In this document: positions 1 through 19,778 of the stretch, in pieces
Position numbering within the stretch: the stretch's first letter is position 1
Layout of the letters: every line of letters starts with the position of its first letter
Assembly: GCA_039630055.1 (NCBI GenBank)
Contig: JBCNVN010000027.1
Coordinates: 1-19,778, forward strand
Origin: Candidatus Caldarchaeales archaeon
GTDB lineage: Archaea; Thermoproteota; Nitrososphaeria_A; Caldarchaeales; Wolframiiraptoraceae
Reading direction: 5' to 3'
DNA length: 19,778 nucleotides
The notes under the pieces: model-generated
Databases searched by the model: none
What the model was told of the DNA's origin: nothing
Seen by the model: the letters and a program-made list of their open reading frames with translations, nothing else
Program-made: the position numbers and the translations under genes

Positions 1-168
1 CTTGGGGCTTCTCTCAGGGGAAGACTGTTTCCAGTGTTATGCCTGGGGCATCTCTGGAGGCGGTCAGCCTCGAACCACTGAGACAATAGACTCCATAGAC
101 ATCATGGAATCCCTTAGACTTTAGACGACTGTAAGCGTTTCAGCGGTCTCAAACGTTACATTAGAGGT

Positions 169-356
169 TTAGAAGGGTTCTAATGCTTCAGCCAACCTCT
201 ATAGGCTCATGTAGAGCTCCTCACAACAGCCGGGTTCAAGACCCTTAGCCCTCAAAAGATTATGGGGGTGCTCTCCTCAAGGCTTGGCTCGGCCGCATCC
301 TCCAGAGCTTCCTTGAAGTCTTCTCCCAGAGGCTCTGGAGGGCTTGGTGAAACCAT
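169..356 (-). pseudogene. possible decayed small gene
   Basis: ATG at 356 after an SD-like GGGTGG gives MVSPSPPEPLGEDFKEALEDAAEPSLEESTPIIF* (252..356). Protein-like sequence continues in another frame (LRAKGLEPGCCEELYMSL*RLAEALEPF*) with an internal stop. No family recognised. Confidence 0.2.
299..341. repeat. 10-bp perfect inverted repeat CCTCCAGAGC-N23-GCTCTGGAGG
   Basis: Arms at 299-308 and 332-341. CTCTGGAGG also occurs at 52-60. Confidence 0.6.
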
Positions 357-591: not shown

Positions 592-597
592 ACGTAG

Positions 598-744: not shown

Positions 745-764
745 GGATGAAGAGGTGAGGGATA

Positions 765-1739: not shown

Positions 1740-1759
1740 CCGGACTATACTACCGGGGC
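1686..1759 (-). tRNA. tRNA-Asp(GTC), intronless, CCA not encoded
   Basis: Reverse complement folds as GCCCCGG TA GTAT AGTCCGGTTA GTAT A CGGGC CT-GTC-GA GCCCG GGAC CCGGG TTCAAAT CCCGG CCGGGGC G, with discriminator G. Confidence 0.97.
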
Positions 1760-1968
1760 TCAATATATCTTGTTCTTTAGGTATTTATCAACCTTTATTT
1801 TTTCGTGACCCTGTTTTTCCTTAGATTTGGAGATAGGTATCCTCTCAAGATTTTCAAGGTAGCTCCATTTATTATGTAATATTTTCTCGGATTGTTTTTA
1901 ATTATTTTCCTTTTAGATGGTCTTTTTTTGAATATTAATCTTTATATCTGGTTTCCGTTATTCTTTTT

Positions 1969-2598: not shown

Positions 2599-2690
2599 AG
2601 ATACTTTGATAAGAGCTTTAATTATATTCTGACAAGATCTATACTCAATACTCTTTAAGGAGAATAATATAATTATCTTAATGAATTAGT

Positions 2691-3683: not shown

Positions 3684-3786
3684 ATTCATTATTCAAAATA
3701 ATTTATGTTAACTGGCTAGATTAAGAATGAAAGTTTTAAGATGAGGTTTTATTATAGTTGGGGGAAGTTTTGAGGGGTGGAGAACG

Positions 3787-4491: not shown

Positions 4492-4509
4492 AGATAAATA
4501 TATCTCTAA
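4488..4509. repeat. 9-bp perfect hairpin overlapping the stop codon (possible terminator or operator)
   Basis: TTAGAGATA-AATA-TATCTCTAA. Confidence 0.45.
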
Positions 4510-4598
4510 AACAGTATTTTTAAGATTAGGACCTAGCATGTCTAGGATTCATGATCCTTCTACTGGAGACGATACTCTCTTTGGAGGTATAATCTAGA

Positions 4599-5510
4599 AT
4601 GGAGAAGGCTGCCGCATCTGCTCCAGGCAAAGTAATATTGTTTGGAGAACATTTCGTAGTATATGATAAGCCCGCTATAGTCTCAGCCATAGATTTGAGG
4701 GCCCGAGTAGAAATATCAATCTATAGTAGGGAGGGGGTTTGGCTGAGAGAGAAGAGGATGAGTAATCATCCAGCTGTTAGAGCTGTAGAGTACATTGTCC
4801 AGAGTAAGGGATTTAGCTCAGGCCTAAACATTAAGATATCCTCAGATATTCCTCCAAGCGTAGGGCTCGGTTCATCTGCTTCAATAGCTGTTTCATCTGC
4901 TGCAGCAGCTTCATTGATCGTTCTAGGTAGATTGGATAGAGAATTGGTTGAGGAAGCAGCATTTGAAGGTGAGAAGATTGTACACTATAATCCTTCTGGG
5001 ATAGATACTACCATAGCATTGAATGGTATGGGAGGATTGTATAGACGATCAATAGGTTTCACAAAGATAAACATACCTATAGAGAAGATTCTGATAATTG
5101 ATACTGGAAGGATGCGTAAGACGGGTGAGATGGTTAAGAGGGTTAGAGAATATATGGAGAGGAATCCAGAAAGATTTAATGAACTTTTGATGATCGAAGA
5201 AAAGCTGGTAAATGAGGCATTAGATATGTTTAAGATCGGAGATCTAGAAGGTGTTGGAAGATTGATGTTGAAGAATCAAGAACTTCTAAGAGAGGTGGGC
5301 GTATCATCTAATGAGATCGAGGAAACTGTAAGACTTGCCTTAGCATCTGGTGCCTATGGAGCTAAGCTTACAGGCGGAGGTGGGGGTGGATGTGTGATAT
5401 GTCTAGTTGATGAAGATATTATGGATAGAGTCTCTAAAAATATTTCTAGATTTTTCAGAACATATGTAGTTAGATTGTTGGCTGAAGGTGTCAGGGAGGA
5501 GAAGGTTTGA
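4599..5510 (+). CDS. mvk: mevalonate kinase
   Basis: APGKVILFGEHFVVY, GHMP motif PPSVGLGSSAS, PSGID, GAKLTGGGGGG. SD GGAGGT. Adjacent to ipk. Confidence 0.93.
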   Translation: MEKAAASAPGKVILFGEHFVVYDKPAIVSAIDLRARVEISIYSREGVWLREKRMSNHPAVRAVEYIVQSKGFSSGLNIKISSDIPPSVGLGSSASIAVSSAAAASLIVLGRLDRELVEEAAFEGEKIVHYNPSGIDTTIALNGMGGLYRRSIGFTKINIPIEKILIIDTGRMRKTGEMVKRVREYMERNPERFNELLMIEEKLVNEALDMFKIGDLEGVGRLMLKNQELLREVGVSSNEIEETVRLALASGAYGAKLTGGGGGGCVICLVDEDIMDRVSKNISRFFRTYVVRLLAEGVREEKV

Positions 5511-6283
5511 GAGAGCTGATAATACTGAAGCTTGGAGGGTCTCTAATTACCGATAAGAATAAACCATTCTCTCTTAGGAGAGAGGTTATTGAAGATATTG
5601 GGAGAGAGCTGAGAGAAATCTCCAATATCTATATGATAATCGTCCATGGCGGTGGATCATATGCGCATCCGATAGCTAAACGCTATAAAGTATTTGAAGG
5701 CTACAAGACTCGAGATCACCTGAGAGGATTCCTAGAGACCGCTAAGACAGTCCGTAGACTAAACAATGAAGTTGTCGAGACCTTGGTAAACTCAGGTTTT
5801 CCATGTATAGGTATTCCAGCTTCAACCTTTATCGTGACTAGGGGAGGCAGGATAGAGACATGTAATTTAGACTCTTTCTTCTCAGCTTTAGATATAGGGA
5901 TTACGCCGGTAACATGTGGAGATGCGGTATTCGATAGAGAGTTGAAGTTCACAGTCCTATCAGGCGATACAATAACATCATATCTATCAACTAGACTTAG
6001 AGCGAAGAAGGCTATATATGCTCTAGACGTGGATGGCGTATACATTAGAGATAGAGTAAGTGGGGATATCAAGCTTGCTGATAGACTTAGCCCCGGAATG
6101 CCTATAGAGACTTTCAAAACTTTGGAGGAAGATGTTACGGGAGGGATAATTAGGAAGATTGAAGAGGGATTTGTAGCTGTAGAGAGTGGTGTTGAAGTAA
6201 TTCTATTGAACGGGTTGGTTAGGGGCAGGATTAGATCAGCGATCTTAGGAGAAGAGGTTGTAGGTACTAGGCTAGTCTTCTAG
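5507..6283 (+). CDS. ipk: isopentenyl phosphate kinase
   Basis: Amino-acid-kinase fold LKLGGSLITDK, HGGGSYAH (IPK His), LSGD, DVTGGI. TTGA overlap with mvk. Confidence 0.92.
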   Translation: MRELIILKLGGSLITDKNKPFSLRREVIEDIGRELREISNIYMIIVHGGGSYAHPIAKRYKVFEGYKTRDHLRGFLETAKTVRRLNNEVVETLVNSGFPCIGIPASTFIVTRGGRIETCNLDSFFSALDIGITPVTCGDAVFDRELKFTVLSGDTITSYLSTRLRAKKAIYALDVDGVYIRDRVSGDIKLADRLSPGMPIETFKTLEEDVTGGIIRKIEEGFVAVESGVEVILLNGLVRGRIRSAILGEEVVGTRLVF

Positions 6284-6906
6284 ATTTCTATAGTCTGCTC
6301 TGAAACAAATTCTTCTAACTTTATATTATCGGCCAGTTCTTCAGTAATTATCCCTCTCTCGACCAGTAGCCTCCGAGCCAGATACCAGAATGCGCTGGGG
6401 AGAGCCATCCTACCCCTATTGTTCATAGGTATCACTAAGTCAATATCATTTGTAGTGTTATCTGTGCTGCACATAGCTATGACGGGTATCCTCGCGATCT
6501 TAGCCTCAAATACTGCTTGAGTATCATATCTTGGATCAGAGATTAGTACTAGTTCAGGCTCCATATATGTCTTCAGCATAGGGTTTGTAAAGATCCCGGG
6601 CTCGAATCTCTCGGTTATCGATATGCATCCAGTCAGTTCACAGAATCGCTTTACAGGTCTAACTCCATAAACATGCGTCGAGACTACTACTACTTTCTCA
6701 GGAGGATAGAATGAGATAAATCTTGCAGCAACATTCAGTCTCTCAATAGTTTTACTTATATCTATCAAGTAGACTCCGTCTGGTCTAAGCTTGAAGATGA
6801 ACTTCTCCATATCTCTAACTTTTATCTGGGAGCCTAGATGTAGACTATTCTTAACCAATATCTCTTTTACTTCTTCAGCTTTCAGAGATCTACTATCTCC
6901 CGACAT
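6280..6906 (-). CDS. rps2: 30S ribosomal protein uS2
   Basis: HLGSQ, RPDGVYLID, RFEPGIFTNP, DLVIPMNNRG. Confidence 0.95.
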   Translation of the reverse strand: MSGDSRSLKAEEVKEILVKNSLHLGSQIKVRDMEKFIFKLRPDGVYLIDISKTIERLNVAARFISFYPPEKVVVVSTHVYGVRPVKRFCELTGCISITERFEPGIFTNPMLKTYMEPELVLISDPRYDTQAVFEAKIARIPVIAMCSTDNTTNDIDLVIPMNNRGRMALPSAFWYLARRLLVERGIITEELADNIKLEEFVSEQTIEI

Positions 6907-6908
6907 CT

Positions 6909-8156
6909 CTATAACCTCGCTATTCTATCAAAACCTATCTCTTCACCAATTCTAATCAGCTCATTTGCTTTTGCCACCCTCTCTCCACCCATTATACCTG
7001 CTTTGAGAACTTTTCCACCCCACGCAATAGCTAGCTGTACTAGATTTCCCTCTGGAGGCTCACCAGATCTATGAGATACAACTGGCACGATCTTCTCTCT
7101 ATGGGCTATCCTTACAGTCTCCATAGACGTAGTCAATAATCCAACTTGATTAGGTTTAACTATCAAGGCCGATACAGCCTTCTTCCCAATAGCTTCCTTA
7201 AGTATCTCAGGGTTTGTAACTATCAGGTCGTCTCCACAGACCAAAGTTTTTCCTGACAGTATCTTGTTCAATTCTGCGAAGCCATCCATGTCATCTTCTT
7301 CAAGTGGATCTTCAACATAGACGATGTTGAAACGTTCAACCCATTCGACAACTCTATTTATCTGCTCTCTCCTACTGAGCTTTCTATCCTCGGTTGGATA
7401 TATGTAGGTTTTACTTTTAGGATTCCATAGGCTTGAAGCAGCTACATCTACTCCTAAGCCGATCTTGAATCCCAGCTCGTCTGAAACATGTTCTATGGCC
7501 TCCGATAAAATCTCTAATCCTTTGACTGTACTGATAGGAGGTGCATATGCTCCTTCATCTCCTTTTCCTAGTGTAAATCCGCCGAGCACTTTATCTAGAA
7601 GTTTACCAGCATACTCATGAACCATAAAGTTCGCTTTTATCGCTGAATGTATATCTGGTGCTCCGAGAGGGATCGTCAATAGTTCTTGCCAGTCTGGTGC
7701 GCCTCTTCCAGCATGTCTTCCACCTCCTATTACATTCCCCAAGGGTAAAGGTAGGTAGAAATCATCAACTATGTTTAGATACTTGTAGAGAGGTTTTCCT
7801 AGACTATTTGAAGCTGCAAGTGATGTGGCGAGAGAGACTGCGTAGACAGTGTTTCCACCTATCTTTTCCAGATTCCTACTACTATCATACTTCTTCAAGA
7901 TTTCTTCAACGTTCCTTATATCTGAAGCATCAACCCCTTTTAACATATTTGATACCTCATTATTGACTATTCTTACAGCTTCTCTCACACTATCTCCTGG
8001 ATAGTATATTACTTCCTTTCCACCTTTGCTCTTCCCTGCAGGTGCAGCCGCTCTCCCAAGACTCTTATCTACTATGACGTCAACTTCTATCGTTTCCTCA
8101 CCCCGACTATTGTATACGAGACGAGCCTTCACATATCTGATAGTTGTCTCCGGCAT
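6909..8156 (-). CDS. eno: enolase (phosphopyruvate hydratase)
   Basis: NSRG, GDEG, VEDP, GDDL, KPNQVG, SHRSGE and ERVAK motifs present. Confidence 0.95.
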   Translation of the reverse strand: MPETTIRYVKARLVYNSRGEETIEVDVIVDKSLGRAAAPAGKSKGGKEVIYYPGDSVREAVRIVNNEVSNMLKGVDASDIRNVEEILKKYDSSRNLEKIGGNTVYAVSLATSLAASNSLGKPLYKYLNIVDDFYLPLPLGNVIGGGRHAGRGAPDWQELLTIPLGAPDIHSAIKANFMVHEYAGKLLDKVLGGFTLGKGDEGAYAPPISTVKGLEILSEAIEHVSDELGFKIGLGVDVAASSLWNPKSKTYIYPTEDRKLSRREQINRVVEWVERFNIVYVEDPLEEDDMDGFAELNKILSGKTLVCGDDLIVTNPEILKEAIGKKAVSALIVKPNQVGLLTTSMETVRIAHREKIVPVVSHRSGEPPEGNLVQLAIAWGGKVLKAGIMGGERVAKANELIRIGEEIGFDRIARL

Positions 8157-8423
8157 CTCGAAATTACTTTTACTGATGAATTAAAATACTTAACGATCTA
8201 TGCTCTGAATGCTAGAAATATACTAAAATTCTTATCGAGATCTCTTAAATATTCTTAAATATACAGAGGTTCTCTGATTGGAGGATCATCTCTCCTAGAA
8301 TTCATGGGGCCATCTATGGGATGGTTAAAATTTTAGAAATTATGCTGTTAAGGTATTATTTTTTGAAGAGGTCGAGAAAGATCTAGAATCTTGAAAATTG
8401 ATAGGGTTAGTAATCTGGTTAAG

Positions 8424-8431
8424 TTTATAAG
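8424..8431 (+). promoter_or_regulatory. TATA box of dppD (probably leaderless)
   Basis: TTTATAAG ends 23 nt before ATG 8455. No SD. Confidence 0.5.
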
Positions 8432-8454
8432 AATGGTAAAAAGAGAAGCAATAG

Positions 8455-9420
8455 ATGGTAAATAATATACTAGAGATACAGAAATTATCAGTCATATATC
8501 CTACCCTAAACGGTCCAATCAAAGCAGTAGATAGTGTTAATCTAGCTGTAAGAGAAGGCGAGGTGTTAGGACTAGTTGGAGAGTCAGGATCGGGAAAATC
8601 CACTCTTGGTCTAGCCATTCTTAAGCTTGTCCCACCGCCTGGGAAGATCGTGAGTGGATCAGTAATATATGATGGCGTCGATATCCTTTCATTAAGCGAT
8701 GAACTTCTTCAGCGGATAAGAGGTAAAGAAATCTCTATGGTTTTCCAAGACCCATCTTCATCACTTAATCCTCTCATGAGAATCAAAGATCATTTCATAG
8801 AATTGTTTAAAAATCATGAGCCAACGATTTCAAAGAAAGAGATAGAAGAGAGGAGTATAAAAATTCTTGAAAGGTTAGGGATTCCATCAGAACGTTTTGA
8901 TAGTTATCCTCATGAGTTGAGTGGTGGAATGCGACAACGCGTGTATATTGGGTTAGCCATAGCACTTAATCCAAAAGTATTGATAGCTGATGAGCCGACG
9001 ACGGCTTTAGATGTATTAATAGAAGCTCAAATATTGAAGTTGTTAAACAAGCTCAAACATGAAATGAATTTAACTATGATCTTGATCACTCACAACATGG
9101 GCTTGGTAGCTGAGAATGCTGACAGGGTCGCTGTAATGTATGCTGGAAAGATAATTGAAGTCGGTTCTAAAGAGGAGGTCTTCTCTAAGCCATTACACCC
9201 ATATACTGAAGGATTGATAAGATCTGCTCCAAATTTTATGAAGAGGTATAGAAGCATATCTTCTATACCTGGAGAGCCACCTGACCTAGCTAGTTTACCT
9301 CAGGGATGCGTCTTCAATCCTAGATGCCCATATAGATTTGAGAAGTGCTTTAAAGTACATCCACCCCTAATCGAGGTCGGGGATAGAGTCGTAGCATGCT
9401 ACTTGTATGGGGATGTTTAA
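8455..9420 (+). CDS. dppD: oligo/dipeptide ABC transporter ATP-binding protein
   Basis: GESGSGKS, LSGGMRQR, IADEPTTALD, ITHN, HPYT and the C-terminal Cys cluster (GCVFNPRC..C..VAC). Confidence 0.93.
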   Translation: MVNNILEIQKLSVIYPTLNGPIKAVDSVNLAVREGEVLGLVGESGSGKSTLGLAILKLVPPPGKIVSGSVIYDGVDILSLSDELLQRIRGKEISMVFQDPSSSLNPLMRIKDHFIELFKNHEPTISKKEIEERSIKILERLGIPSERFDSYPHELSGGMRQRVYIGLAIALNPKVLIADEPTTALDVLIEAQILKLLNKLKHEMNLTMILITHNMGLVAENADRVAVMYAGKIIEVGSKEEVFSKPLHPYTEGLIRSAPNFMKRYRSISSIPGEPPDLASLPQGCVFNPRCPYRFEKCFKVHPPLIEVGDRVVACYLYGDV

Positions 9421-9969
9421 TTGGAGAAGATATTAGCCGTTGAACATGTCAAGAAATATTTTCCTGTTGAGAAAAGTTTTATCGAACGTATCTTCTCTAA
9501 GAATAAACTATACGTTAGAGCAGTTGATGATGTTAGTTTCGATCTGATGTATGGTGAAGTCCTCGGTCTTGTAGGTGAGAGTGGAAGTGGGAAGACGACG
9601 ACCGGCTTAATGATCGTAGGCTTATTAAAACCTACTGCGGGAAGAATCATTTTTAGAGGAATCGATATATCAAATCTAGATTCTAAAGAATTAAAGCAGA
9701 TTAGAAGGAAGATTCAAATGATCTTTCAAGATCCAATGTCTTCTCTAGATCCAAGAATGAAGATCGGGGAGGCTGTTGAAGAGCCATTAAAGATTCATGG
9801 AGTAGGTTCATCGAAAGAGAGAAGAGAACTAGTTGTAGAGGTTTTGCAGAAGGTTGGACTGGGTCCAGCGCTTCTAGATAGATTCCCACATGAATTAAGT
9901 GGTGGTCAGAGGCAGAGGGCGGTCATAGCCACTTGGCTTCTTCTCTCCTATCATGTAGATACATCGTAA
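9421..9969 (+). pseudogene. dppF: truncated oligopeptide ABC ATPase; homology ends at about 9931
   Basis: Walker A GESGSGKT and LSGGQRQRAVIA are present. The frame then reads the antisense of DUF1028. Walker B, H-loop and the C-terminal domain are missing. Confidence 0.85.
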
Positions 9970-10723
9970 GGGCTTGCCAAAACTTTAATTCTATCTTTTC
10001 TGGAGCGAGGATTGCAGCTTTCTGATATTCTTTTAAAGCTTCCTCAATCTTTCCCTCCGATACCAGACTGTCACCTATGTTTGCATGTTCATAGGCTTTA
10101 TGAAGAGTGACAAGCCTTCTAAGCTCTTTTAATGGTTCTGGATGATCTTCAACTCGAAGATCAATAACTTTATCCTCCCAGTAAGATCCAGAAGAGGTAG
10201 TTTTAACAACGATTATACATGCAGACTGTCTTCCCCTAACATCTCCTCCAGCCGCCTCCGCGGCTTCAAGAGCTATCAGAAGCCTTTCATATAATGGTCC
10301 TCTACTTTTTTCGTATGCATCGGCCATCTCTACCCACACCCTACTATTTCTCATCAGATTAGCTTGAACACTGTATCCATCTCCAATTATGTGGCCCGCC
10401 TCAGGTATACATTTACTACCTGTATGAGTAGATATTCGCCCATTCTTATCAAGCATTGCTACTTGTCTTACTTCAGGTGTCTGATCGATATTTAGAAGGG
10501 CTTTAAGCGTATTCTCGGCGGTCAACCCATTACGCATCAATGCTAATCCTAGGGGACCATAACTTACTTCGACTACTGACTGTGTTGCTACTACACCTAC
10601 CCCTGGCTCTGCCCATGCAACTATCGAGCCTACTGAAAACCAGTGAGATTGTACGGCTACACCCATCTCTCCAGCTTCTCTATCTATAGCTACAATAGAA
10701 TAGGTAGATGCAAGCTTTAACAT
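9923..10723 (-). CDS. DUF1028 family (Ntn-hydrolase-like) protein with TPR-like C-terminus, probably 3'-truncated
   Basis: TYSIVA, GVAVQS, ATQS, GGDVRGRQSA, DLRVEDHPEPLKELRRL. The TPR-like segment ends abruptly at REEAKWL*. Confidence 0.85.
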   Translation of the reverse strand: MLKLASTYSIVAIDREAGEMGVAVQSHWFSVGSIVAWAEPGVGVVATQSVVEVSYGPLGLALMRNGLTAENTLKALLNIDQTPEVRQVAMLDKNGRISTHTGSKCIPEAGHIIGDGYSVQANLMRNSRVWVEMADAYEKSRGPLYERLLIALEAAEAAGGDVRGRQSACIIVVKTTSSGSYWEDKVIDLRVEDHPEPLKELRRLVTLHKAYEHANIGDSLVSEGKIEEALKEYQKAAILAPEKIELKFWQALTMYLHDRREEAKWL

Positions 10724-10795
10724 GATCTAAAAATATAGAAGATCATCTAATATACTTTGTGAATTGATGTGGGGATATCCAGTGTAATATTCTAG

Positions 10796-11017
10796 TTACT
10801 CTGTTACTTCTTTGTGCCCATATAATGTGTGAAGTTTTACTATCTCATCATATACTTCATAGTGTGTGAGGAGCATCCTTCTACAGCAGTATCTTTTTAC
10901 ACCTAGAGAGTCCAAGACCTTTCCAGGATCTTCTCCAGCTTCTACTCTACTCTGATATTCTTCCCATTTATCAGCTATCAATGTACCACATGTAAAACAT
11001 CTTATAGGTATCAGCAT
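10796..11017 (-). CDS. rpoN: DNA-directed RNA polymerase subunit N (Rpo10)
   Basis: [11 protein letters not shown]...[11 protein letters not shown]. Confidence 0.97.
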
Positions 11018-11042
11018 ACCGGTGTTTATCCACGAGACCCCG

Positions 11043-11050
11043 TATATAAA
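11043..11050 (-). promoter_or_regulatory. TATA box of rpoN (leaderless or very short leader)
   Basis: Minus-strand TTTATATA lies 25 nt before ATG 11017. Confidence 0.6.
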
Positions 11051-11272
11051 TTTGCTGTTATGACATATTGAGAAAATTTCTTAAAAATTTTCAATATCTT
11101 TAGAATCTTAATCTCTTGAAGGAATAAAAAGTTAGGAGATTATTGATACTATAATAGATTAATTTTTTATAATGTGGTTAAGTATAATATAATGTTTAAT
11201 TAGCTCGGTCGCTACAAAGCATCTATGAACTGTTAGAGACATTTCTGTAAATTATCCTTAAATGATAATTTG

Positions 11273-11983
11273 TTAACCTATGCCTAGATAAAATTTTTTC
11301 AGCATATCGGTCTTAAGCAACTCTAAGCCTTCGCCGGACATCACTATCTTACCGTTCTCCATAACGTAAGCCCGATCAGCTATGCTTAGAACTTTATCTA
11401 CGTACTGGTCTACGATCAATAGAGTTGTTCCTCTGTTCTTCAGCTCTGTAAGTTTTTCAAAGATCAATTCAACCATCTTAGGCGATAATCCTAGACTTGG
11501 CTCATCTATGATCAAGATTTTTGGATAAGATATGAGGGCTCTAGCGATAGCCAGCATCTGTGCCTCACCGCCACTTAGACTCTTTGCTGTTTGATTAAGC
11601 CTCTCTTTTAATACTGGAAAGATATTAAAGACGAACTCCATCTGTTCATTTATAATATGCTCCTCCTTTAAAAAGTAGGCACCCATAGTTAAGTTCTCCT
11701 TTACTGTTAGATTTGGGAATAATCTTCGACCTTCAGGCACCAATGAGATTCCTAACTTTTTAATCATGTGAGGTTTTAGATGTGTTAAGTTAATGCCATC
11801 GAGCTCTATGCTTCCAGAGTAAGGTTTGAGGAAACCAGTGATGACTTTTAACAAAGTGCTCTTTCCAGCTCCATTAGGTCCAACTAATGCTGTAAGCTTC
11901 CCCGGTTTAACCTCTAAGCTTACATTCCACAATACTTGGATTCTTCCATATCCTGCTGAGACATTCTTTATAGCTAGCTCCAT
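11273..11983 (-). CDS. livF: branched-chain amino acid-type ABC transporter ATPase
   Basis: GPNGAGKS, VPEGRRLF, LSGGEAQMLA, DEPSLGLSP. Start probably MELAIK at 11983 (GGAG upstream); the alternative is 12001. Confidence 0.9.
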   Translation of the reverse strand: MELAIKNVSAGYGRIQVLWNVSLEVKPGKLTALVGPNGAGKSTLLKVITGFLKPYSGSIELDGINLTHLKPHMIKKLGISLVPEGRRLFPNLTVKENLTMGAYFLKEEHIINEQMEFVFNIFPVLKERLNQTAKSLSGGEAQMLAIARALISYPKILIIDEPSLGLSPKMVELIFEKLTELKNRGTTLLIVDQYVDKVLSIADRAYVMENGKIVMSGEGLELLKTDMLKKFYLGIG

Positions 11984-12714
11984 TCTTTCATCTCCATCCA
12001 TTTCGTACCTAAGTAGGCTTCTATAACACGTGGATCCTTACTGATTAATTCTGGGGAGCCTTCAGCTATTTTTTCACCATAATGGAGTACGATAATCTTC
12101 TCTGAGAGCCCCATGACAAACTTCATAACATGTTCTACTACAAGGAGCGTCAACCCCATCTTCTCTTTGATCTCTTTAAGCTTCTTTACCATTTTATCGA
12201 CCTCAGTGGGAGTAAGACCTGCTGCTATCTCATCTATTAAAAGAATCTTAGGGCGTGTTGCAATGCTTCGAGCCAGTTCTACTAATTTTAGCTGAGGGAT
12301 ATTCAGTTCTTTAGATGGTCTATCTTTTAGATCAGTTATGCCTACAAGCTTCAATGCTTCAAGTGCAGTATCATATGCTTCAGAGACTTCTCTACTCTTA
12401 AGATAAGACCCCACAACTACTGTCTCCCATACTGTTAGAGATGGAAACGGTTTTACTATCTGGAAACATCTTGAAACCCCTAAGCTAGCTATTTTATGTG
12501 GTCTCCAACTGTTTACATTCCGTCCAAATATCCAGACCGTTCCCTTATCAGGTCTTAGGAAACCTGTTATAATATTGAAGAGAGTTGTCTTTCCAGCTCC
12601 ATTAGGACCTATTATTCCAACAGTTTCACCTTCATCTACACTTAGGTTGATTGAGTTTAGAGCAACTAAAGCCCCAAACTTCTTTGTAATATCTCGAACC
12701 TCTAGCGCCTTCAT
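11974..12714 (-). CDS. livG: branched-chain amino acid-type ABC transporter ATPase
   Basis: True start MKALEV at 12714 (ATGA overlap with livM stop). GPNGAGKT, DEIAAGL, VVEH, DPRVIEAYLG. Confidence 0.92.
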   Translation of the reverse strand: MKALEVRDITKKFGALVALNSINLSVDEGETVGIIGPNGAGKTTLFNIITGFLRPDKGTVWIFGRNVNSWRPHKIASLGVSRCFQIVKPFPSLTVWETVVVGSYLKSREVSEAYDTALEALKLVGITDLKDRPSKELNIPQLKLVELARSIATRPKILLIDEIAAGLTPTEVDKMVKKLKEIKEKMGLTLLVVEHVMKFVMGLSEKIIVLHYGEKIAEGSPELISKDPRVIEAYLGTKWMEMKEWS

Positions 12715-13667
12715 CTCTTTCTCACCTTCTCTATTAAAGATTCTAAGTAGGGCCCGATCCCAGCCGGCTTGAAGAGTATGGCGATGATCAGTATAGCTCC
12801 AAATATTACTTGGTGGAGACCTGGTATGGTTCCTCCTAAGCTGATTCTGAGATACTCTGCAATCGAGAGTAGAATCACAGAGGTGAGAGGCGGACCCCAA
12901 AAGTGTCCAAGACCTCCAACTATCGCTATTGTAGCTGTCTGTATCCCAATCCATCCATCGAATAAGATTGGATGATAGAATCCTACCATGCTTGCGTAGA
13001 CCCCGCCTGTTACTGCTGTGATGAAACTATATGTTAGTAGGGCGAATAGTTTATACCTCCTCGTATCGATACCCAGCATCTCGGCCGCTTCTTCTTCATC
13101 TCTTATACTGACTAGGTAGAGACCGAGTTTTCCCTTCTTCACACGATGTGCAAGATAGAATGCGATAAGTAGTAGTCCAAGGGTTATGTAGTAGTAGAAC
13201 CACTTAGCTCTAGCCCTCATATATAGTGGATCAAATTCTCTGAAAGGAATATACCTCTCGAGAGGGCCTGCAACATCTGTCCAGAGAAGGAAGATCTTTT
13301 GTAAGATTAATACGAGACCGAGTGAAGCTAATGCATACCAGACTTCCTTAAGTCCAAATCTAAAGCTTGGAAACCCTACTATAAAAGCGACCCCCATCGC
13401 GGCCAATCCACCTAAGACTAGCCCAAACCATCCAGAAACATTATGGTATATCATTAAATATCCAGTTATGACAGCTCCTAGTCCATGGTATGCTCCTGCA
13501 CCTAGATCAAGCTGTCCAGCTAACCCGCCGATGAAGTACCATGCCATAACTATCACTGTATACAGTAGGATTAACGTAGTCAAGAAGATGTAGTAATCAT
13601 TTAGACCGAGAATAAGTGGAAGGAAGAGTAGAAAAACTCCAAAGCTTGCGAGTTGCCAGAACCGCAT
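12711..13667 (-). CDS. livM: branched-chain amino acid-type ABC transporter permease
   Basis: Multiple TM segments. GQLDLG, SIRDEEEAAEMLGID, IVGGLG, KPAGI. Confidence 0.9.
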   Translation of the reverse strand: MRFWQLASFGVFLLFLPLILGLNDYYIFLTTLILLYTVIVMAWYFIGGLAGQLDLGAGAYHGLGAVITGYLMIYHNVSGWFGLVLGGLAAMGVAFIVGFPSFRFGLKEVWYALASLGLVLILQKIFLLWTDVAGPLERYIPFREFDPLYMRARAKWFYYYITLGLLLIAFYLAHRVKKGKLGLYLVSIRDEEEAAEMLGIDTRRYKLFALLTYSFITAVTGGVYASMVGFYHPILFDGWIGIQTATIAIVGGLGHFWGPPLTSVILLSIAEYLRISLGGTIPGLHQVIFGAILIIAILFKPAGIGPYLESLIEKVRKR

Positions 13668-13671
13668 AGAG

Positions 13672-14553
13672 CTACCTCCTACCCCATAATCCTCTCGGTT
13701 TTAACCAAAGAATAAGTATGAATAGACCGTAAAGGATTATCTCTCTTCCTCTCGGATCCCACAGTCCGCTGGCTAGAGCATCAGCTAATCCAAAAATTAC
13801 AGCAGCTATATAAATCCCTCTAATACTTCCCAATCCTGCAAGCGCTACTATCGCCCAAGAAAGTAATCCGAATAATAGTCCAGAAGTAGGGGTAACTGCT
13901 TGATACATCATTATAAGTGATCCTGAAAGCCCGACAAGCATCATGCTTATTCCAAGAGTTAATAAGAAAAGTCTCCCAGTATCAATCCCCATCATCGATA
14001 CTGCATCGACATCATCTGCTGCAGCTCTCATCGCGGTTCCAAACTTACTTCTCTCTAAGAAGAGGTATAGTAAGATGAGGGAGGTGACGCTTATTATAGT
14101 CGCGAAAAGCTTATCGATTGGGATTATTATCGGGCCAATCTTATAAGATGCTGAGAATATAGTGAATGGTGGAGCTTTAGGTTCTGCTTGCCAGATCACT
14201 AATGCAATATTCCTCAATAAGACTAGGACGCCGACTGTTACAGCTATCTGAGATAAAGGTGGAGCGTTTATAACTCTTTTGAAGAAAAGAAGATATGTAA
14301 CTAGACCTATCACAAAGAAGAGTGGAATATTGATTATTGAGCTCACTACTGGATCTATTACTAGTGTTACGCTAAAGAAGTAGGCCATATACATAGCTAG
14401 CATAACGTATTCTCCATGAGCAAAATTTATGAGGTTTGCAACACCGAAGAGCAGCGCCAATCCCATAGCTGCTAAAGCATATACGCTACCCATCATAATC
14501 CCTAAGACTATATTTCTCACTAAACTTATAGCGAAGTCGATTAACAGATCCAT
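13672..14553 (-). CDS. livH: branched-chain amino acid-type ABC transporter permease
   Basis: YALAAMGLALLFGVANLINFAHGE, GTAMRAAADD, KPRGLWG. Confidence 0.92.
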   Translation of the reverse strand: MDLLIDFAISLVRNIVLGIMMGSVYALAAMGLALLFGVANLINFAHGEYVMLAMYMAYFFSVTLVIDPVVSSIINIPLFFVIGLVTYLLFFKRVINAPPLSQIAVTVGVLVLLRNIALVIWQAEPKAPPFTIFSASYKIGPIIIPIDKLFATIISVTSLILLYLFLERSKFGTAMRAAADDVDAVSMMGIDTGRLFLLTLGISMMLVGLSGSLIMMYQAVTPTSGLLFGLLSWAIVALAGLGSIRGIYIAAVIFGLADALASGLWDPRGREIILYGLFILILWLKPRGLWGRR

Positions 14554-14589
14554 GTTACAATCACTGTATTTTTCTAATCAAGTGTTAAT

Positions 14590-15870
14590 CTATGGCCTCG
14601 GGTAGATTACAGAGGCTTGAGCTTTTTCAAATGGGTAGACTAGAACTGGTTTACCACCCTGCACTTGTAGCACAACTGCACCTGCATACATATTATCTCC
14701 ATTAGGCAGTAGCTTTATTCTACCTGTGGGATAAGTCTCTGCAGCTGGTCCACTCTTTAAGTCTAACTCCATCAAACAAGACATGAGGTTATCACCACTA
14801 AGTGGATCTTGTGGATACTTCTGCCCAGATAATTCTAGAGCCTCCTTCAAAGTCCAGAGTGTATAGAAGATTATACCAGCAGCCTCTGTCGGTAACTTAC
14901 CATATCTTTTCTTGAAATCTTCGACAAGCTTCTTATTGTATTCTGTAGGTAAGAAGGGGTCATAACTATATGTATTTGTCATAATCTCTACAGCATCTCC
15001 CGCCGCCTTTATAGAGTCAGGGTCTGCAAGCCCTGTCCCTCCTGCAGCAGCTATAAACTTAACTTTTAAGCCTAGAGTCTTGACGGCTTTAGCGAATAAG
15101 ACGGAGTCGGCAAAGTATGGAACAACGAAGACTACATCGGGGTCTGCTGCTCTTATCCTCTCAATGATGGGAGCCATATCTGTTATATCTGTTGGATATT
15201 TTATTCTATCAACAAGCTTAATGCCGAGGTCTCTGAGTCTTTGATATATGCCGTCTCCAGTTACTTCGCCGAACAATCCATCAAAGTGGACGAGGACTGG
15301 TCTTGTAAGCTTCTCACCTTTTTGTTTCATCAAGCTTACTACAAAATCTACTGCAGTTGCACCGTGAACTGAAGCTTTGGGAGGCAATCTTACTATATAC
15401 TTGAAACCGCGGGCAGTTAGGTAATCGACTAAAGCATCTGCCATCACGATGACTTTGTTCGGCTCAGTAACATCCAACATCGTGAGAGTATGAGCGCTTA
15501 TGAACGCACCTATTATTACGTTAACTCTATCAACGCTTACTAACTTCTCCGCCGCTAACCTTGCACCATCAGCTGTACTCTTGCTATCCTCAACTATTAG
15601 TCTAATCTTAGCTCCGCCTAAATTCTTTATACCACCTTGAGCATTAATCTGTTCCACTATCATCTCAGCCGCCATCTTTGCTTCATTACCGAAAACTGCG
15701 TAAGCACCAGTAAGCGGCTCGACTAAACCTACTTTAACTTCTTCAACCTTAACTGTAGGTTTAGCAAATTGAAGAGAAATAATCGCTACACCACCGATAG
15801 CCACGCCAATAACGATTACCACAGCAAGTATTATTGCCTGTAATTTTGTTAATGCATTAAATCTTTTCAT
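14590..15870 (-). CDS. livK: ABC transporter substrate-binding protein (LivK/LivJ-like)
   Basis: N-terminal hydrophobic anchor. VKVGLVEPLTGAYAVFG, INAQGGI. First gene of the liv operon. Substrate not determinable from sequence. Confidence 0.88.
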   Translation of the reverse strand: MKRFNALTKLQAIILAVVIVIGVAIGGVAIISLQFAKPTVKVEEVKVGLVEPLTGAYAVFGNEAKMAAEMIVEQINAQGGIKNLGGAKIRLIVEDSKSTADGARLAAEKLVSVDRVNVIIGAFISAHTLTMLDVTEPNKVIVMADALVDYLTARGFKYIVRLPPKASVHGATAVDFVVSLMKQKGEKLTRPVLVHFDGLFGEVTGDGIYQRLRDLGIKLVDRIKYPTDITDMAPIIERIRAADPDVVFVVPYFADSVLFAKAVKTLGLKVKFIAAAGGTGLADPDSIKAAGDAVEIMTNTYSYDPFLPTEYNKKLVEDFKKRYGKLPTEAAGIIFYTLWTLKEALELSGQKYPQDPLSGDNLMSCLMELDLKSGPAAETYPTGRIKLLPNGDNMYAGAVVLQVQGGKPVLVYPFEKAQASVIYPRP

Positions 15871-15891
15871 GCACGTAACTTTTTACATCTT

Positions 15892-15913
15892 TTATTTAAG
15901 TCTTCCAGAAGAC
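15892..15913 (-). promoter_or_regulatory. livK TATA box with an adjacent palindrome (candidate operator)
   Basis: Minus-strand TTAAATAA a little over 20 nt before ATG 15870, directly preceded by GTCTTC-CA-GAAGAC (15900-15913). Confidence 0.45.
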
Positions 15914-16027
15914 ATCCTTTTACCCCCTCCTCGATAATCAAGCATCTTTAATTCCTAGGATTTAAAAGTTGTTTAAGGAAAAATTAATTAAGAGATATTA
16001 CAATGTTATACTTGGTGGTCTACTTTT

Positions 16028-16468
16028 GTGTCATTATTATTCGAGGAAAAACCACCTCCAACACCTTGGAGAACCTACCTGGTCCCCATAAACATCCTTA
16101 AACTTCATGAAGAGATATCTGAAGAACATGCCCTAAGATTGTTTGAAGAGATTGTCAGAGATGGATACTTGAAGAGACCATTACTAGTAGAGAATAGATA
16201 CTATATCATTCTAGATGGACATCATAGATATGCTGTATTAGAGAAGCTGGGAGCAAAGCTTACCCCAATATTCTTAGTTGACTATGCTTCTTCAATGATC
16301 GAGGTTTATTCTTGGAGGAGTGATTGGAATATAACGAAAGAGATGGTTATAGAGGCTGGTATAAGTGGAAGAAGACTTCCATTCAAGACTAGTAGACATG
16401 TACTTAAGGGAGTAGATATTCCAGATATCAACATCTCTATATCGAGATTGGTGAGAGAGCATCTATGA
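16028..16468 (+). CDS. serK: ParB/Srx-fold protein, minimal SerK-like free-serine kinase
   Basis: GTG start after SD GGTGGT. KLHEE, ILDGHHR, VDY, VYSW, TKEMV and PFKTSRHVL parallel my recollection of Thermococcus SerK (KPHEQ, VDGHHR, LDY, VYTW, TKEEV, SPKTTRHVL). ATGA overlap with cysO. Confidence 0.72.
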   Translation: MSLLFEEKPPPTPWRTYLVPINILKLHEEISEEHALRLFEEIVRDGYLKRPLLVENRYYIILDGHHRYAVLEKLGAKLTPIFLVDYASSMIEVYSWRSDWNITKEMVIEAGISGRRLPFKTSRHVLKGVDIPDINISISRLVREHL

Positions 16469-17643
16469 AGATAGTGGCGTTGGAAGATTTGAAGAGTATT
16501 CCCAGACCTCCAATAGAAGAATTGTTAGAAGATGCTGCCAAGTTGTTGAGAGAAGGTAAGCTAGAGGAGACAATAGAGGTGGATGATGATCTTAGAGTAA
16601 GCCCCAGGCATTATAGGATCTTCCATGCATTAAAGATGCTGGGTGTAAAGAGGCTTCCAGTAACTATTAACAGAACCATCAGGGTTGATTTAACATTGGT
16701 AGAGCTTGGATTCGAAGAAGATTTAGAAGCTAATCCCTTCAGAGTATGTAGAGAACATGGCGAACTGATTAAATCTTGCTGGCCTACACCTTTAGTCTAT
16801 CTCAGCTCTCTATCAAGAAACATGAGCGAGGCATGGGCTAAATTAGAGTATTTCAATCCTTTTAGTAATAGTATCAAGGATAGGATCGGATGGTTTATGC
16901 TCGTTGATGCATTAGAGAATGATATAGGTATTTCTAGGAGTAGGCTGATCTATGAAGCATCTTCAACCAATACTGGGATAGCTCTAACATGTGTTGGGAA
17001 AAGATTTGGTCTCAAGACAAGAATATATCTACCTAGCTCTGTTCAGAAACATAACGATCTCTACTTCAAGATACTTGGCTCAGAGTTGGTGAGAGTTCCT
17101 GAACAATTAACAACTCAAGCAATAGAAAGGGTTAGAGAAGATTCAAGAAGAGATGGTGCAGTACATATTAACCAATTTGAGAATGATGCCAACTTTATCT
17201 CTCATCTAAGATTTACAGCTAAAGAGCTTGATATACAGTTGAGGAAGGCTGGGCTGAAGCCTAGAAGGATAATCTGCTCACTTGGAACCTCTGGCCATGC
17301 TAGCGCTATATCCTTCTACTTTAAGAATAGGTATTCAAAGGATCTGGAGGTTATAGGTGTACAGCCAGCTAAAGATAATATTATTCCCGGTATGAGGAGG
17401 GTTGAGACTGGGATGAAGTGGATACATCTCGTCAAGATAGATAAGATTATCGAGGTAACATGCGATGAGGCTCTTGAAGGGCTTCTAAAGATCACCACTA
17501 ATGAGGGGCTACCGATAGGTCCGAGTTCTGGAGCTGTGGTTGCAGCTCTCGATAAACTTCAAGATTTAGATGGTGTAACTATCTTGATCATGCCAGACCA
17601 CTTCTACAAGTATAGCGAGTTCTTCTCTTCCATTATGGTTTAA
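16465..17643 (+). CDS. cysO: PLP-dependent cysteine synthase, O-phospho-L-serine sulfhydrylase (CysO type) with N-terminal extra domain
   Basis: KLEYFNPFSNSIKDR (PLP Lys), SSTNTG, NQFENDANF, SLGTSGH, IPGMRRVETGM. Closely parallels recalled Aeropyrum pernix CysO motifs. Confidence 0.85.
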   Translation: MKIVALEDLKSIPRPPIEELLEDAAKLLREGKLEETIEVDDDLRVSPRHYRIFHALKMLGVKRLPVTINRTIRVDLTLVELGFEEDLEANPFRVCREHGELIKSCWPTPLVYLSSLSRNMSEAWAKLEYFNPFSNSIKDRIGWFMLVDALENDIGISRSRLIYEASSTNTGIALTCVGKRFGLKTRIYLPSSVQKHNDLYFKILGSELVRVPEQLTTQAIERVREDSRRDGAVHINQFENDANFISHLRFTAKELDIQLRKAGLKPRRIICSLGTSGHASAISFYFKNRYSKDLEVIGVQPAKDNIIPGMRRVETGMKWIHLVKIDKIIEVTCDEALEGLLKITTNEGLPIGPSSGAVVAALDKLQDLDGVTILIMPDHFYKYSEFFSSIMV

Positions 17644-17682
17644 GAAAATATCTAAAGAATGATTTAATCGGTTTTATTCGAT

Positions 17683-18081
17683 CTATCTATATGATTTCTG
17701 TCTAAACCTTCTCGCAGAGTATCTATTGGGCTTCTTAGGCTCAGTCTGTCTCGGATCTCCCGCTAACAGCATCCTATCGTATTCTTTTATGTTTTGTAAT
17801 GCTGTCTCACTTCTAGAGGCTAGTGCTTTCGCTATGGCAAATGATACAGCATCTGCGATGGCGACTATTCCTCCACCTTTAACTTTTACATAGAAGTCAT
17901 GACTTTTCCAGAACTTCTCATCAAAGTATAATGGTTTCAATATCTTGCTCCTAACGAATTCATCTCCAAAAAATGTTACCGGCTGATTGTTTATGTATAC
18001 GTTTCCTTTTCCCGGTCTTATGAAGAGTTTAGCTATGGCTGTTTTTCTTCTTCCTACGAATGGTCCTGTCGGCTTAGTCAA
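17683..18081 (-). CDS. rps9: 30S ribosomal protein uS9
   Basis: GRRKTAIA, VKGGG, YDRMLLAGDPRQTEPKK, ARRFRQKSYR. Confidence 0.97.
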   Translation of the reverse strand: MTKPTGPFVGRRKTAIAKLFIRPGKGNVYINNQPVTFFGDEFVRSKILKPLYFDEKFWKSHDFYVKVKGGGIVAIADAVSFAIAKALASRSETALQNIKEYDRMLLAGDPRQTEPKKPNRYSARRFRQKSYR

Positions 18082-18553
18082 TAAACCTCCCTCCAGAGAT
18101 AATACCTGAAACCTCTCCGATAGTCATATATCTTAATATTCTTCCAGATTTAGCTATCCCCTCACCGATCTCTGCATCTTTAAATCTTATCTTCTCAACG
18201 TTTTCCAATGTTTTCGGTAGACCGATGTAAACCTTTAATCTTCTTATGGCTTCCCTCCCTCTAGGCTTATCTCTCGGAAGCATTCGAGCTATCGTATACC
18301 AGACTATCCTATCCGACCTCCTCGGATACCATACTTTTACAACTTTATGGGATGAAAGCTGCCGCCTACTCATCAATCTAAGATATCTTTCTAGTACCGC
18401 TTTCTTATTCCCAGTTATAATTGCTTTATCAGCGTTTACAACAATCACTTCGACCCCAGATAGTAATAGTTTTGCGATCTTAGAGGCTATCCTACCTAGC
18501 CTCTGTCCTGCAGCATCTACTACTATCCGTCCACTAACTTTTTCCTCCAACAT
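18074..18553 (-). CDS. rpl13: 50S ribosomal protein uL13
   Basis: VVDAAGQRLGRIASKIAKLLL, RMLP, RLKVYIGLP. Overlaps rps9 by 8 nt. Confidence 0.96.
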   Translation of the reverse strand: MLEEKVSGRIVVDAAGQRLGRIASKIAKLLLSGVEVIVVNADKAIITGNKKAVLERYLRLMSRRQLSSHKVVKVWYPRRSDRIVWYTIARMLPRDKPRGREAIRRLKVYIGLPKTLENVEKIRFKDAEIGEGIAKSGRILRYMTIGEVSGIISGGRFID

Positions 18554-18920
18554 TCAGTATTTCAACGATCTTGGATGAATGGCAATATATAACTTTAATA
18601 GTTTTTCCTCATTATCTAAGATCATCCCATAATTCTTAAAACTCTACTTTGCTTTAATTCTAGATTGTTTTGAGCTTGATTCATCTATAGATATAACTTT
18701 CAGAGAAGGGGGTGAGAAGAGGTGTGTAAGTAGAGGGTTTTAGGTTCACATATTCTCTACGGCTTCATGCTGAGCACACATAAGCAATGGTAGACATGAG
18801 ACATCTACTAGAGTTTATCATTTGGGGAAAGGGTTTTAGAGTGGGAGAGGCTTCAAGCTCTATCAAAAAATATAACATCATTAATCTATATATGAAAATA
18901 TGAAAATAATTGATGGTGGT

Positions 18921-19778
18921 TTATCTTATCCGGAATGTTCGGTCGCTCGTGTCTTCACCTATCTGTCCAAAATTATCTGTAACGACCACCTTGATTAAGC
19001 CTGCATTTGTAGATATGTTCGGCACCCTCCACAAGTAGCGTCCCGGATTTCCTGATAAAGTCGTTATCAGAAACCATCTTGTTCCTGCGTTTGGAGAGAA
19101 GTAGATCTGAGTTTGTATAATTTCTCCTCCACCTGAAACTGTCCAAGAGATAATGTAATAACTGTTTCTTCTAAGTATTTCACCACCATTAGGTTTAATG
19201 ACTCTGACGACTATAGGCTGTAGCGGCTGTCTCACTATCCTAAACGTTGAGTCGCTCGTATCATAGATTGATGAATTTGTAACACTCTCTATCCTAATCA
19301 AGGCAGAGTTTGTAGCTGGACCTGTGACCAGCCATGGTTCAGAGCCATCATTCAATGTCTCACTGAAGATGATAGACCATGTGGATCCCCCATCTCTTGA
19401 GAGTAGTATCCTGACATTTCCGGAGACGGCCTGTGAGCTCCATCTTATCTGAATAGTCGAGTTAATATATAGGCTCTCACCACCGTTTGGATAGATAACG
19501 TTTATTTGTGGAGTAGCTGGTGGTTGGAATGTTGTCAAGTCTCCTAGCTCTCTCTCGATGTTTGCAATATTGCTGAAGACGAAATGTGTCACACCGTTTA
19601 TTTCTCCTCCACCCCATAGTATACCGTATAACTGTACATTCCCAGTTGATGAATCAACGATCTTGAAGACTGGTGAGCCGCTATCGCCAGGTCCAGCATT
19701 CGCTCTTACAAAGTCTTGACAGATTAGAGCATAATTAGTTCCAGAAACAAGTGTTGTAACACATGTATTTGTCACCCC
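18921..19778 (-). CDS. 5'-partial trypsin-like (PA clan) serine protease with two C-terminal PNGGE Ig-like domains
   Basis: Catalytic-Ser motif GPGDSGSPVF followed by GILWGG. Two ~90-aa repeats (PNGGE...W...G..W...DTSD.TFRI). The frame is open to the window edge. Confidence 0.8.
   Translation of the reverse strand, partial: GVTNTCVTTLVSGTNYALICQDFVRANAGPGDSGSPVFKIVDSSTGNVQLYGILWGGGEINGVTHFVFSNIANIERELGDLTTFQPPATPQINVIYPNGGESLYINSTIQIRWSSQAVSGNVRILLSRDGGSTWSIIFSETLNDGSEPWLVTGPATNSALIRIESVTNSSIYDTSDSTFRIVRQPLQPIVVRVIKPNGGEILRRNSYYIISWTVSGGGEIIQTQIYFSPNAGTRWFLITTLSGNPGRYLWRVPNISTNAGLIKVVVTDNFGQIGEDTSDRTFRIR

Follow-up and report, generated by a model that had tools for sequence, protein, structure and literature searches.

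Closest to the gene pair considered here are the O-phosphoserine sulfhydrylase (CysO, also termed OPSS) of Aeropyrum pernix (structures 1WKV, 3VSC, 6L0P/Q) and the free serine kinase SerK of Thermococcus kodakarensis (5X0B; Pyrococcus furiosus: 1VK1). The additional N-terminal domain of OPSS (N-domain) is itself known since the structure of 2005, and the abstract of that structure paper is said to have called it a new alpha/beta fold. The two genes described here lie on the same strand in a Candidatus Caldarchaeales archaeon (GenBank assembly GCA_039630055.1, contig JBCNVN010000027.1, positions 1 to 19,778; this whole stretch of 19,778 nucleotides is referred to as the window): an open reading frame (ORF) of 146 amino acids (aa) with GTG start (16028-16468 (+)), which encodes a predicted serine kinase of SerK type (mini-kinase), is followed by an ORF of 392 aa (16465-17643 (+)), which encodes a predicted CysO of the Aeropyrum type. 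By its predicted proteins, this overlapping pair is shown to encode both enzymes of the route from serine via O-phosphoserine to cysteine, with a CysO that bears a kinase copy of its own: the first ~82 residues of CysO and the SerK-type serine kinase encoded directly upstream are very probably paralogues, the CysO copy being catalytically dead. The homology, the fold, the loss of the kinase motifs, the intermediate forms and the gene linkage of this domain are documented below.

The N-domains of the window CysO and of the A. pernix enzyme share ~23% identity; in contrast to the A. pernix gene, the window CysO gene overlaps a mini serine-kinase gene. SerK of T. kodakarensis possesses the motifs H-E, DGHHR and KTSRH, none of which is present in the window N-domain, and it contains residues ~107-203 that are missing from the mini-kinase. 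In Staphylococcus, the serine kinase SbnI and the O-phosphoserine-using, pyridoxal 5'-phosphate (PLP)-dependent enzyme SbnA are separate proteins of a siderophore pathway, SbnI being equipped with a regulatory C-domain; a dead kinase domain on SbnA was not seen in these searches (SbnA aligned from residue 9). Sulfiredoxin (Srx) and the N-domains of ParB, Noc and KorB are more distant from the CysO N-domain than SerK and SbnI, and their GxxR-type nucleotide motif is absent from the CysO N-domain. In the bacterial cysteine synthase complex, the C-terminal tail of CysE binds in the active site of CysK. This complex, in which the enzyme making the activated serine binds the sulfhydrylase (PMC3805590), shows in concept how a kinase and CysO could associate; however, its activating enzyme is an acetyltransferase, and it contains no paralogous pseudo-domain.

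Homology of the CysO N-domain to the upstream kinase family

Relatives of CysO were collected by an exhaustive HMMER search (4639 matches at E ≤0.001, 40 of them at ≤1e-30; the best 150 were listed). The N-domain was taken as the region ahead of the PTPLV motif, with at least 75 residues required there, which yielded a set of 22 sequences. Comparison of these 22 N-domains with 20 mini-kinases by hhalign gave a probability of 97.5% (E 7.8e-12), N-domain positions 3-68 being aligned to kinase positions 18-83 without any gap. After exclusion of the four most kinase-like N-domains (P0004, P0007, P0008, P0027) and of the kinase part of P0004, the probability was 95.5% (E 1.5e-8), and after additional exclusion of the window sequence and its closest relative P0002 it was 92.9% (E 3.7e-7); when only 23 CysO proteins and 19 stand-alone kinases were compared, the probability amounted to 95.4% (E 1.7e-8, 66 columns). 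Chance is excluded because the control profiles scored far below the real comparisons (reversed kinase profile: 12.1; 30 column shuffles: 7.6-14.5; real comparisons: 50.6-67.3). The profiles thus confirmed homology of the CysO N-domain to the neighboring mini-kinase, far beyond chance at the level of the sequence families, and with it the claim of the preliminary description that the domain is a paralogue of the upstream kinase.

That description had been based on an alignment by hand, the strings of which are present in the window (CysO residues 2-66, positions 16468-16662; kinase residues 17-81 in the ORF 16028-16468); in the present comparison, CysO residues 1-66 (16465-16662) align with mini-kinase residues 17-83. 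Its register was retained for LK, R[ED]GxL, V[DE] and LxxLGxKxxP, all of which are in register in the profiles. The proposed HxR correspondence, in contrast, is not conserved and depends on a pair of gaps in the earlier alignment, since the profile alignment is ungapped (shift by one residue). When the N-domain region was used as query in a word-indexed search, which is of limited sensitivity, 2 proteins were retrieved among 132 candidates.

Fold of the N-domain

Residues 1-106 of CysO were modeled by AlphaFold2 (AF2) from an alignment of CysO sequences only (23 sequences; predicted local distance difference test (pLDDT) 89.1, predicted template modeling score 0.76); the single-sequence model of the whole CysO was unusable (pLDDT 35.8). 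In a Foldseek search of the Protein Data Bank (PDB), ranks 1-9 were occupied by SerK (5x0b and mutants), P. furiosus 1vk1 and SbnI (E 6.4e-4 to 1.8e-3), followed beyond rank 9 by ParB, Noc, A. pernix OPSS and sulfiredoxin. The structure comparison resulted in values of 9.6-9.9 for the A. pernix OPSS chains 6l0q, 3vsc and 1wkv (2.1-2.2 Å over 73-74 residues; chain residues 2-76), of 9.0 for Noc, and of 8.4 for ParB and Srx; the model is in accordance with the N-domain of the solved Aeropyrum structures, and it fits SerK better than 1wkv. According to the model, the N-domain has the ParB/Srx fold with the free serine kinases of SerK type as nearest relatives, and the ParB/Srx similarity expected in the preliminary description was recovered by structure. 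Judged from the matched range of the SerK chain (18..242) alone, residues 73-77, which form the final strand of the modeled N-domain, may correspond to the C-terminal strand of SerK. A dead kinase origin would also explain the extra domain of Aeropyrum-type enzymes, as suggested in the preliminary description. A look-up by protein language model pointed to clusters of ParB_N and sulfiredoxin (score 0.87) and is regarded as a lead only.

Loss of the kinase motifs

For motif counts, 48 non-redundant N-domains (58 before removal of duplicates; P-set and loci) were aligned onto the kinase family of 19 homologues (125-168 aa). The pair H27-E28, the intact DGHHR, H66 and H124 were each present in 0/48 N-domains versus 19/19 mini-kinases; H65 was retained in 4/48 and R67 in 3/48 N-domains, and the pattern G[HM]HR was found nowhere in any of the 48. 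Positions of the fold core, on the other hand, were kept: L71 in 44/48 N-domains (16/19 mini-kinases), G75 in 41/48 (16/19), and P80 in 43/48 (19/19). The KTSRH segment is deleted in the short-form N-domain, the form found in the window, and degenerate in the long forms (e.g. KSFIL, RSFEV). The IIEAG..G..L helix is preserved in the long forms, as is G-H in the position of the phosphate-binding motif. In the window, the kinase residues HEE are faced by IPR, with P13 of CysO in the position equivalent to SerK E30. This glutamate was reportedly identified as the catalytic base by Nagata et al. in 2017; the PDB entries 5x0g, 5x0e, 5x0j and 5x0k are E30A/E30Q mutants of SerK. The pattern is that of a pseudo-enzyme, with the fold kept and the predicted chemistry lost, as had been proposed from the replacement of HEE by IPR; CysO homologues with an intact DGHHR, whose existence had also been considered, were sought, and none occurred among the 48 N-domains. 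Concerning the proposed change of DGHHR into PRHYR, the motif is lost indeed, yet the residues opposite to it in the ungapped profile are R48-H-Y-R-I52 and not P47-R-H-Y-R51.

Intermediate forms and proposed history

Several natural proteins combine kinase and sulfhydrylase. P0004 (582 aa) consists of three parts: the first is a mini-kinase in which H-E and DGEHR are present, the middle one is again kinase-like, and the third is CysO. Pfam recognized ParB_N at the mini-kinase and PALP at CysO. By BLASTP, the middle part (residues 143-284) was aligned to the window kinase over 127 aa (E 3e-14), a range that contains both the terminal strand and the IIEAG..G..L helix. Single ORFs composed of kinase, dead kinase and CysO also occur in G288 (585 aa) and G330 (597 aa), two genomes from different genera, the kinase hidden Markov model (HMM) matching the G330 ORF twice (1.5e-45 and 6.9e-20). 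In the long-form CysO proteins (~440-474 aa as open frames), the N-terminus is formed by a mini-kinase that is complete yet degenerate: the kinase HMM matched L070 (E 6e-23, HMM positions 6-142), L069 (1.4e-20) and L072 (7.7e-11), with starts at 6/16/12 and ends at 141-142, as well as the second domain of L071 (6.9e-20), and the window kinase used as genome query matched inside the long-form CysO frames of G344 (E 1.7e-12) and G089 (E 1.6e-12). Compared with these long forms, the window short form is ~40 residues shorter in the stretch that joins the ParB core to the last strand. The duplication or fusion of kinase and sulfhydrylase put forward in the preliminary description is borne out by these forms, the long ones being colinear with the entire mini-kinase and the single ORFs uniting kinase, dead kinase and CysO.

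A quick IQ-TREE analysis was performed with 68 rows (50 mini-kinases, 5 SerK-like proteins with insert, 3 others, 10 long-form N-domains); the resulting unrooted tree does not include 41 short-form rows because hmmalign to the kinase HMM cut most short N-domains. The 10 long-form N-domains were placed on one side of one branch versus 58 kinases (100 in the Shimodaira-Hasegawa-like approximate likelihood ratio test, SH-aLRT), which is consistent with a single origin of the long forms. From the natural forms seen, the whole history would most likely have been the following: A minimal serine kinase of ~145 aa, located beside a phosphoserine-dependent PLP enzyme, would have been duplicated; one copy would have been fused to the N-terminus of the sulfhydrylase, giving the long form that is colinear with the whole mini-kinase; the fused copy would then have lost its His-Glu, DGHHR and KTSRH motifs; and the short form of the window and of Aeropyrum-type CysO would also have lost the KTSRH-carrying middle segment, while the ParB core and the last strand stayed. 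In genome G316, a kinase-like C-terminal fragment (G316:C2:2242-2391 (-); query residues 85-137, one in-frame TAA) is located directly upstream of a CysO-like gene without N-domain (G316:C2:1274-2218 (-)); it may represent a decaying long-form N-domain.

Several points weigh against the proposed kinase origin and history of the N-domain. The two proteins of the window are marginally similar to each other (BLASTP of CysO aa 1-100 versus the window kinase: E 0.045, 13/54 identities), and in consequence the claim rests on the families; no model of Pfam or NCBIfam matched CysO residues 1-100; the AF2 model may be influenced by 1wkv, a structure released before AF2 was trained; and, with a quickly built tree that has no root, the order of events was deduced from architecture. 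For the Pfam model ParB_N (PF02195), the window N-domain gave no match up to E 10, and the best N-domain was that of P0008 with 14.3 bits (gathering score: 26.3 bits; E 0.041). This weak match in one N-domain, together with the wide fusion of the ParB fold to other domains (PMC12704722), would agree with a generic ParB-like domain having been recruited independently, or with chance resemblance, instead of descent from a SerK-type lineage. However, the long forms share the C-terminal segment of all mini-kinases (weakly similar to SerK 204-228) and the terminal strand in a colinear arrangement over 127 aa, and chance resemblance is excluded by the shuffle controls; such an independent origin is thus considered extremely improbable. 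To our knowledge, ParB and Srx are devoid of the KTSRH-type C-terminal segment.

Gene neighborhood and present role of the N-domain

The gene neighborhood was analyzed in 401 sampled genomes of the phylum, with two tables tallied by hand; related genomes are not independent, and the counts are descriptive. A CysO profile match above 420 bits was obtained in 64 genomes and covered the N-domain in 62 of them; it did not in G333 and G049, the contig of the latter ending there. The mini-kinase was found directly upstream and co-directional in 11/64 genomes (including the window and 4/5 congeners), fused with CysO in one ORF in 2/64 (585 and 597 aa), divergent within 350 bp in 4/64, divergent at a distance of 1.5-2 kb in 3/64, and elsewhere in the genome (E ≤1e-20) in 9/64; the remaining 35/64 had only weaker SerK/ParB-like matches or none, several of the weaker matches being SerK-like proteins with insert (L066-L068) and some the CysO N-domain itself. 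Among the 30 best kinase loci, CysO was adjacent in 11/30 and no adjacent CysO was present in 19/30.

We infer that the present-day N-domain belongs to the enzyme as a module with no catalytic role. It might be a structural relic without any link to the kinase today, which packs on the PLP domains or stabilizes the dimer of this thermophilic enzyme: it is retained across many families whatever the kinase neighborhood, its conserved residues are those of the fold core only, and a conserved linker motif joins it to the PLP domain. A. pernix OPSS is reportedly active alone in vitro. An adjacent mini-kinase was found for 20/64 CysO with N-domain versus at most 3 (G170, G070 and the G316 remnant) of ~58 listed CysO-like proteins without the domain, which, the genomes being related, is a hint only; it speaks against a purely structural relic, an explanation that we rate as plausible but somewhat short of an even chance.

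Alternatively, the N-domain could serve as scaffold that docks the active mini-kinase as pseudo-enzyme of its own paralogue, the complex handing over O-phosphoserine. In favor of docking are the ATGA-overlapping genes, the position of 20/64 high-scoring (>420 bits) CysO genes inside 2 kb of a mini-kinase in three arrangements, and the natural single-ORF fusions P0004, G288 and G330; because of these fusions and the three kinds of linkage, a physical association of kinase and CysO is favored. The proposed docking has to be balanced against three sets of observations. Firstly, 44/64 genomes with high-scoring CysO, and hence many CysO genes with N-domain, have no mini-kinase inside 2 kb. Secondly, mini-kinases also adjoin PALP genes without N-domain (G148, G238, G231, G130, G339, G170), and the pairing of kinase and PLP enzyme is consequently wider than the N-domain CysO. 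Thirdly, the congener G255 has a mini-kinase remnant of 100 aa (L033:1196-1498 (+); HEE replaced by CGK, DGHHR region deleted) upstream of an intact CysO that retains the N-domain, with the divergent ABC (ATP-binding cassette) binding protein-like gene conserved; the kinase query gave no match in the G255 genome (95% complete). In view of G255 and the many CysO genes without nearby mini-kinase, the N-domain must have a kinase-independent value too, most simply a structural one. Docking is put forward tentatively, as a role that is rather unlikely on present evidence. The complex prediction for CysO and kinase (score 0.00 versus a mark of 0.32, without control runs) weighs neither way.

The PALP neighbors without N-domain (~300-320 aa; G148:C4:42977-44282, G238:C1:1350951-1352251, G231:C11, G130:C13, G339:C2, G170:C2) matched the CysO profile mostly with E ~1e-66 to 1e-68 (G170: 1.7e-96). 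At locus L026 (G376:C64), the CysO gene, located downstream of a mini-kinase, is split in two frames or interrupted by TAG, which may indicate a pseudogene or a sequencing error.

The N-domain might also have retained the ability to bind a ligand (nucleotide, serine or phosphoserine) and act as an allosteric sensor of the sulfhydrylase. The ParB/Srx fold acts as nucleotide-binding module in ParB, Srx and SerK (PMC12704722), and the G-H and helix kept by the long forms would fit such a function; the phosphate-binding GxxR/DGHHR motif, however, is gone in 48/48 N-domains, and the short form is devoid of the KTSRH-carrying segment, which makes a sensor function improbable. The preliminary description had further considered that the dead domain may replace the missing domain of the mini-kinase. 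This is disfavored, as the short form consists of the ParB core without SerK insert and KTSRH segment, and as mini-kinases occur without adjacent CysO in 19/30 loci.

If docking took place, the Thermoproteota would possess an archaeal counterpart of the cysteine synthase complex, in which the ~145-aa kinase and the dead domain would form a heterodimer of paralogues that does not release O-phosphoserine; the fusions would represent its covalent version, the Aeropyrum N-domain a remnant, and the larger SerK of Thermococcales a derived form of the minimal kinase. This is a speculative proposal for which the odds are clearly unfavorable.

Mini-kinase and catalytic part of CysO

The mini-kinase matched the NCBIfam SerK model (NF053625) with E 5.2e-14 and 52 bits (cut-off: 380 bits), profile positions 18-101 of 244 being covered; by its whole-protein score and by the full two-domain length of ~242 aa, it does not qualify as a member of this family. 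The PDB structure of SerK (5x0b) was matched with E 5.4e-13 (aa 18-100 to 20-106) and, weakly, in a further stretch (103-127 to 204-228), whereas SerK residues ~107-203, an insert of ~100 aa, had no counterpart in this alignment. Because the match was restricted to the first half of the SerK model and the alignment to 5x0b fell into two stretches, the 146-aa protein is, as judged from its sequence, a SerK-like protein minus this insert. The motifs H-E, DGHHR and KT[ST]RH are all present according to the SerK alignment and the family conservation, with K120 and H124 invariant and T121 and S122 conserved in at least 90% of the mini-kinases. A single copy was found in the window's own genome (1.54 Mb, 92% complete), where the profile search for PGDH (TIGR01327) gave two dehydrogenases of ~330 aa, both under the cut-off.

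As query, the mini-kinase had matches in 227/401 genomes at E ≤1e-5, a count that takes in SerK-like proteins with insert and possibly other ParB-like proteins; the text of Makino et al. (PMC5120207) presents clear-cut SerK homologues as restricted to four genera. SerK-like proteins with the ~100-residue insert (L062, L063, L066-L068) gave two-part matches to the mini-kinase HMM and were placed among the mini-kinases in the quick unrooted tree (SH-aLRT 81-91, weak); this position hints that the insert of SerK may be derived and not ancestral. Two further mini-kinase-like proteins (L064, 218-aa frame; L065, 239-aa frame) have DGMHR for DGHHR and a charged, E/K-rich C-terminal extension of ~70 residues. 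In P0172 and P0173 (317-318 aa), an N-terminal extension of ~190 residues with a signal/transit-peptide-like start precedes a complete mini-kinase, in which H-E, DGHHR and KTSRH are all intact; both were the only matches among 1543 candidates in a search for longer kinase proteins that missed known fusions and thus was of limited sensitivity.

The closest solved relative of the 392-aa protein is 1wkv, the O-phosphoserine sulfhydrylase of A. pernix (E 1.3e-63; 47-386 to 44-377). As characteristic of an Aeropyrum-type CysO, it displays the PALP fold with the PLP lysine, the arginine equivalent to A. pernix R297, which is tied to phosphoserine recognition in the text of PMC5120207, and an extra N-terminal domain of ~75 residues. 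Within the region leading to the PLP domain, L78, L81 and G82 are conserved to at least 90% in two CysO alignments (model pLDDT there: 67-78).

Relation to published work

In the literature searched, no paper was found that links the N-domain of OPSS to ParB, Srx or SerK; the primary structure papers, supplements and fold databases were outside this search, and an earlier description is possible. The main text of the ParB-fold survey of 2025 (PMC12704722) does not mention fusions with PLP enzymes; since Pfam does not detect the domain, a PF02195-based survey is blind to the CysO N-domain. The kinase origin proposed here would reveal the evolutionary descent of an extra domain that has been unexplained in an archaeal enzyme of cysteine biosynthesis with known structure; to the ParB/sulfiredoxin fold it would add a pseudo-enzyme and a new architecture, i.e. 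a dead SerK domain joined to a PLP enzyme. In addition, the results draw attention to minimal SerK-like kinases as a widespread family.

Features and surroundings of the locus

Positions of the features in the kinase-CysO gene pair are compiled in Table 1.

Table 1. Features of the overlapping kinase-CysO gene pair (positions in the window).
Feature	Position	Strand	Basis
Mini serine-kinase gene, 146 aa, GTG start	16028..16468	+	SerK-like ParB/Srx core and C-terminal KTSRH segment
Kinase H27-E28 (= SerK H29-E30)	16106..16111	+	5x0b alignment; invariant in 19/19 mini-kinases
Kinase D63-G-H-H-R67	16214..16228	+	aligned with SerK DGHHR; invariant in 19/19 mini-kinases
Kinase K120-T-S-R-H124, C-terminal SerK-type segment	16385..16399	+	weak alignment to SerK 204-228
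ATGA overlap (kinase stop codon and CysO start codon shared)	16465..16468	+	read from the sequence
CysO N-terminal putative pseudo-kinase domain, aa 1-82, ParB/Srx fold	16465..16710	+	core: 16465-16662
CysO I12-P13-R14, facing kinase H27-E28-E29	16498..16506	+	offset 15, ungapped profile alignment
CysO R48-H-Y-R-I52, facing kinase DGHHR	16606..16620	+	profile alignments
CysO linker, aa 83-106, conserved L..LG.Y....RV...EL motif, into PTPLV start of PLP domain	16711..16782	+	
CysO catalytic PLP-dependent (PALP) domains	16783..17643	+	Pfam PALP, E 4.1e-48, residues 106-367
CysO PLP lysine K138	16876-16878	+	aligned with 1wkv K127 and the K127A site of 3vsc; invariant in CysO alignment
CysO R311 (= A. 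pernix R297)	17395-17397	+	PGMRRVETG aligned with PGIRRVETG

As judged by eye, the pair is flanked by a divergent ABC substrate-binding-like gene and by a convergent, ribosomal-protein-like gene pair. Upstream, a run of five ORFs (11273-15870 (-)) resembles by eye an ABC amino-acid transporter, in which the ORF at 14590-15870 would encode the binding protein and two hydrophobic ORFs look like permeases. Scanning for sigma-70 promoters and terminators gave 6 sites versus 5.4 expected, the sigma-70 model being uninformative for an archaeon. At the end of the window, which it leaves, an ORF (18921-19778 (-)) encodes a GDSGSP motif, which we take to be typical of trypsin-like serine proteases, followed by two similar segments of ~90 residues.

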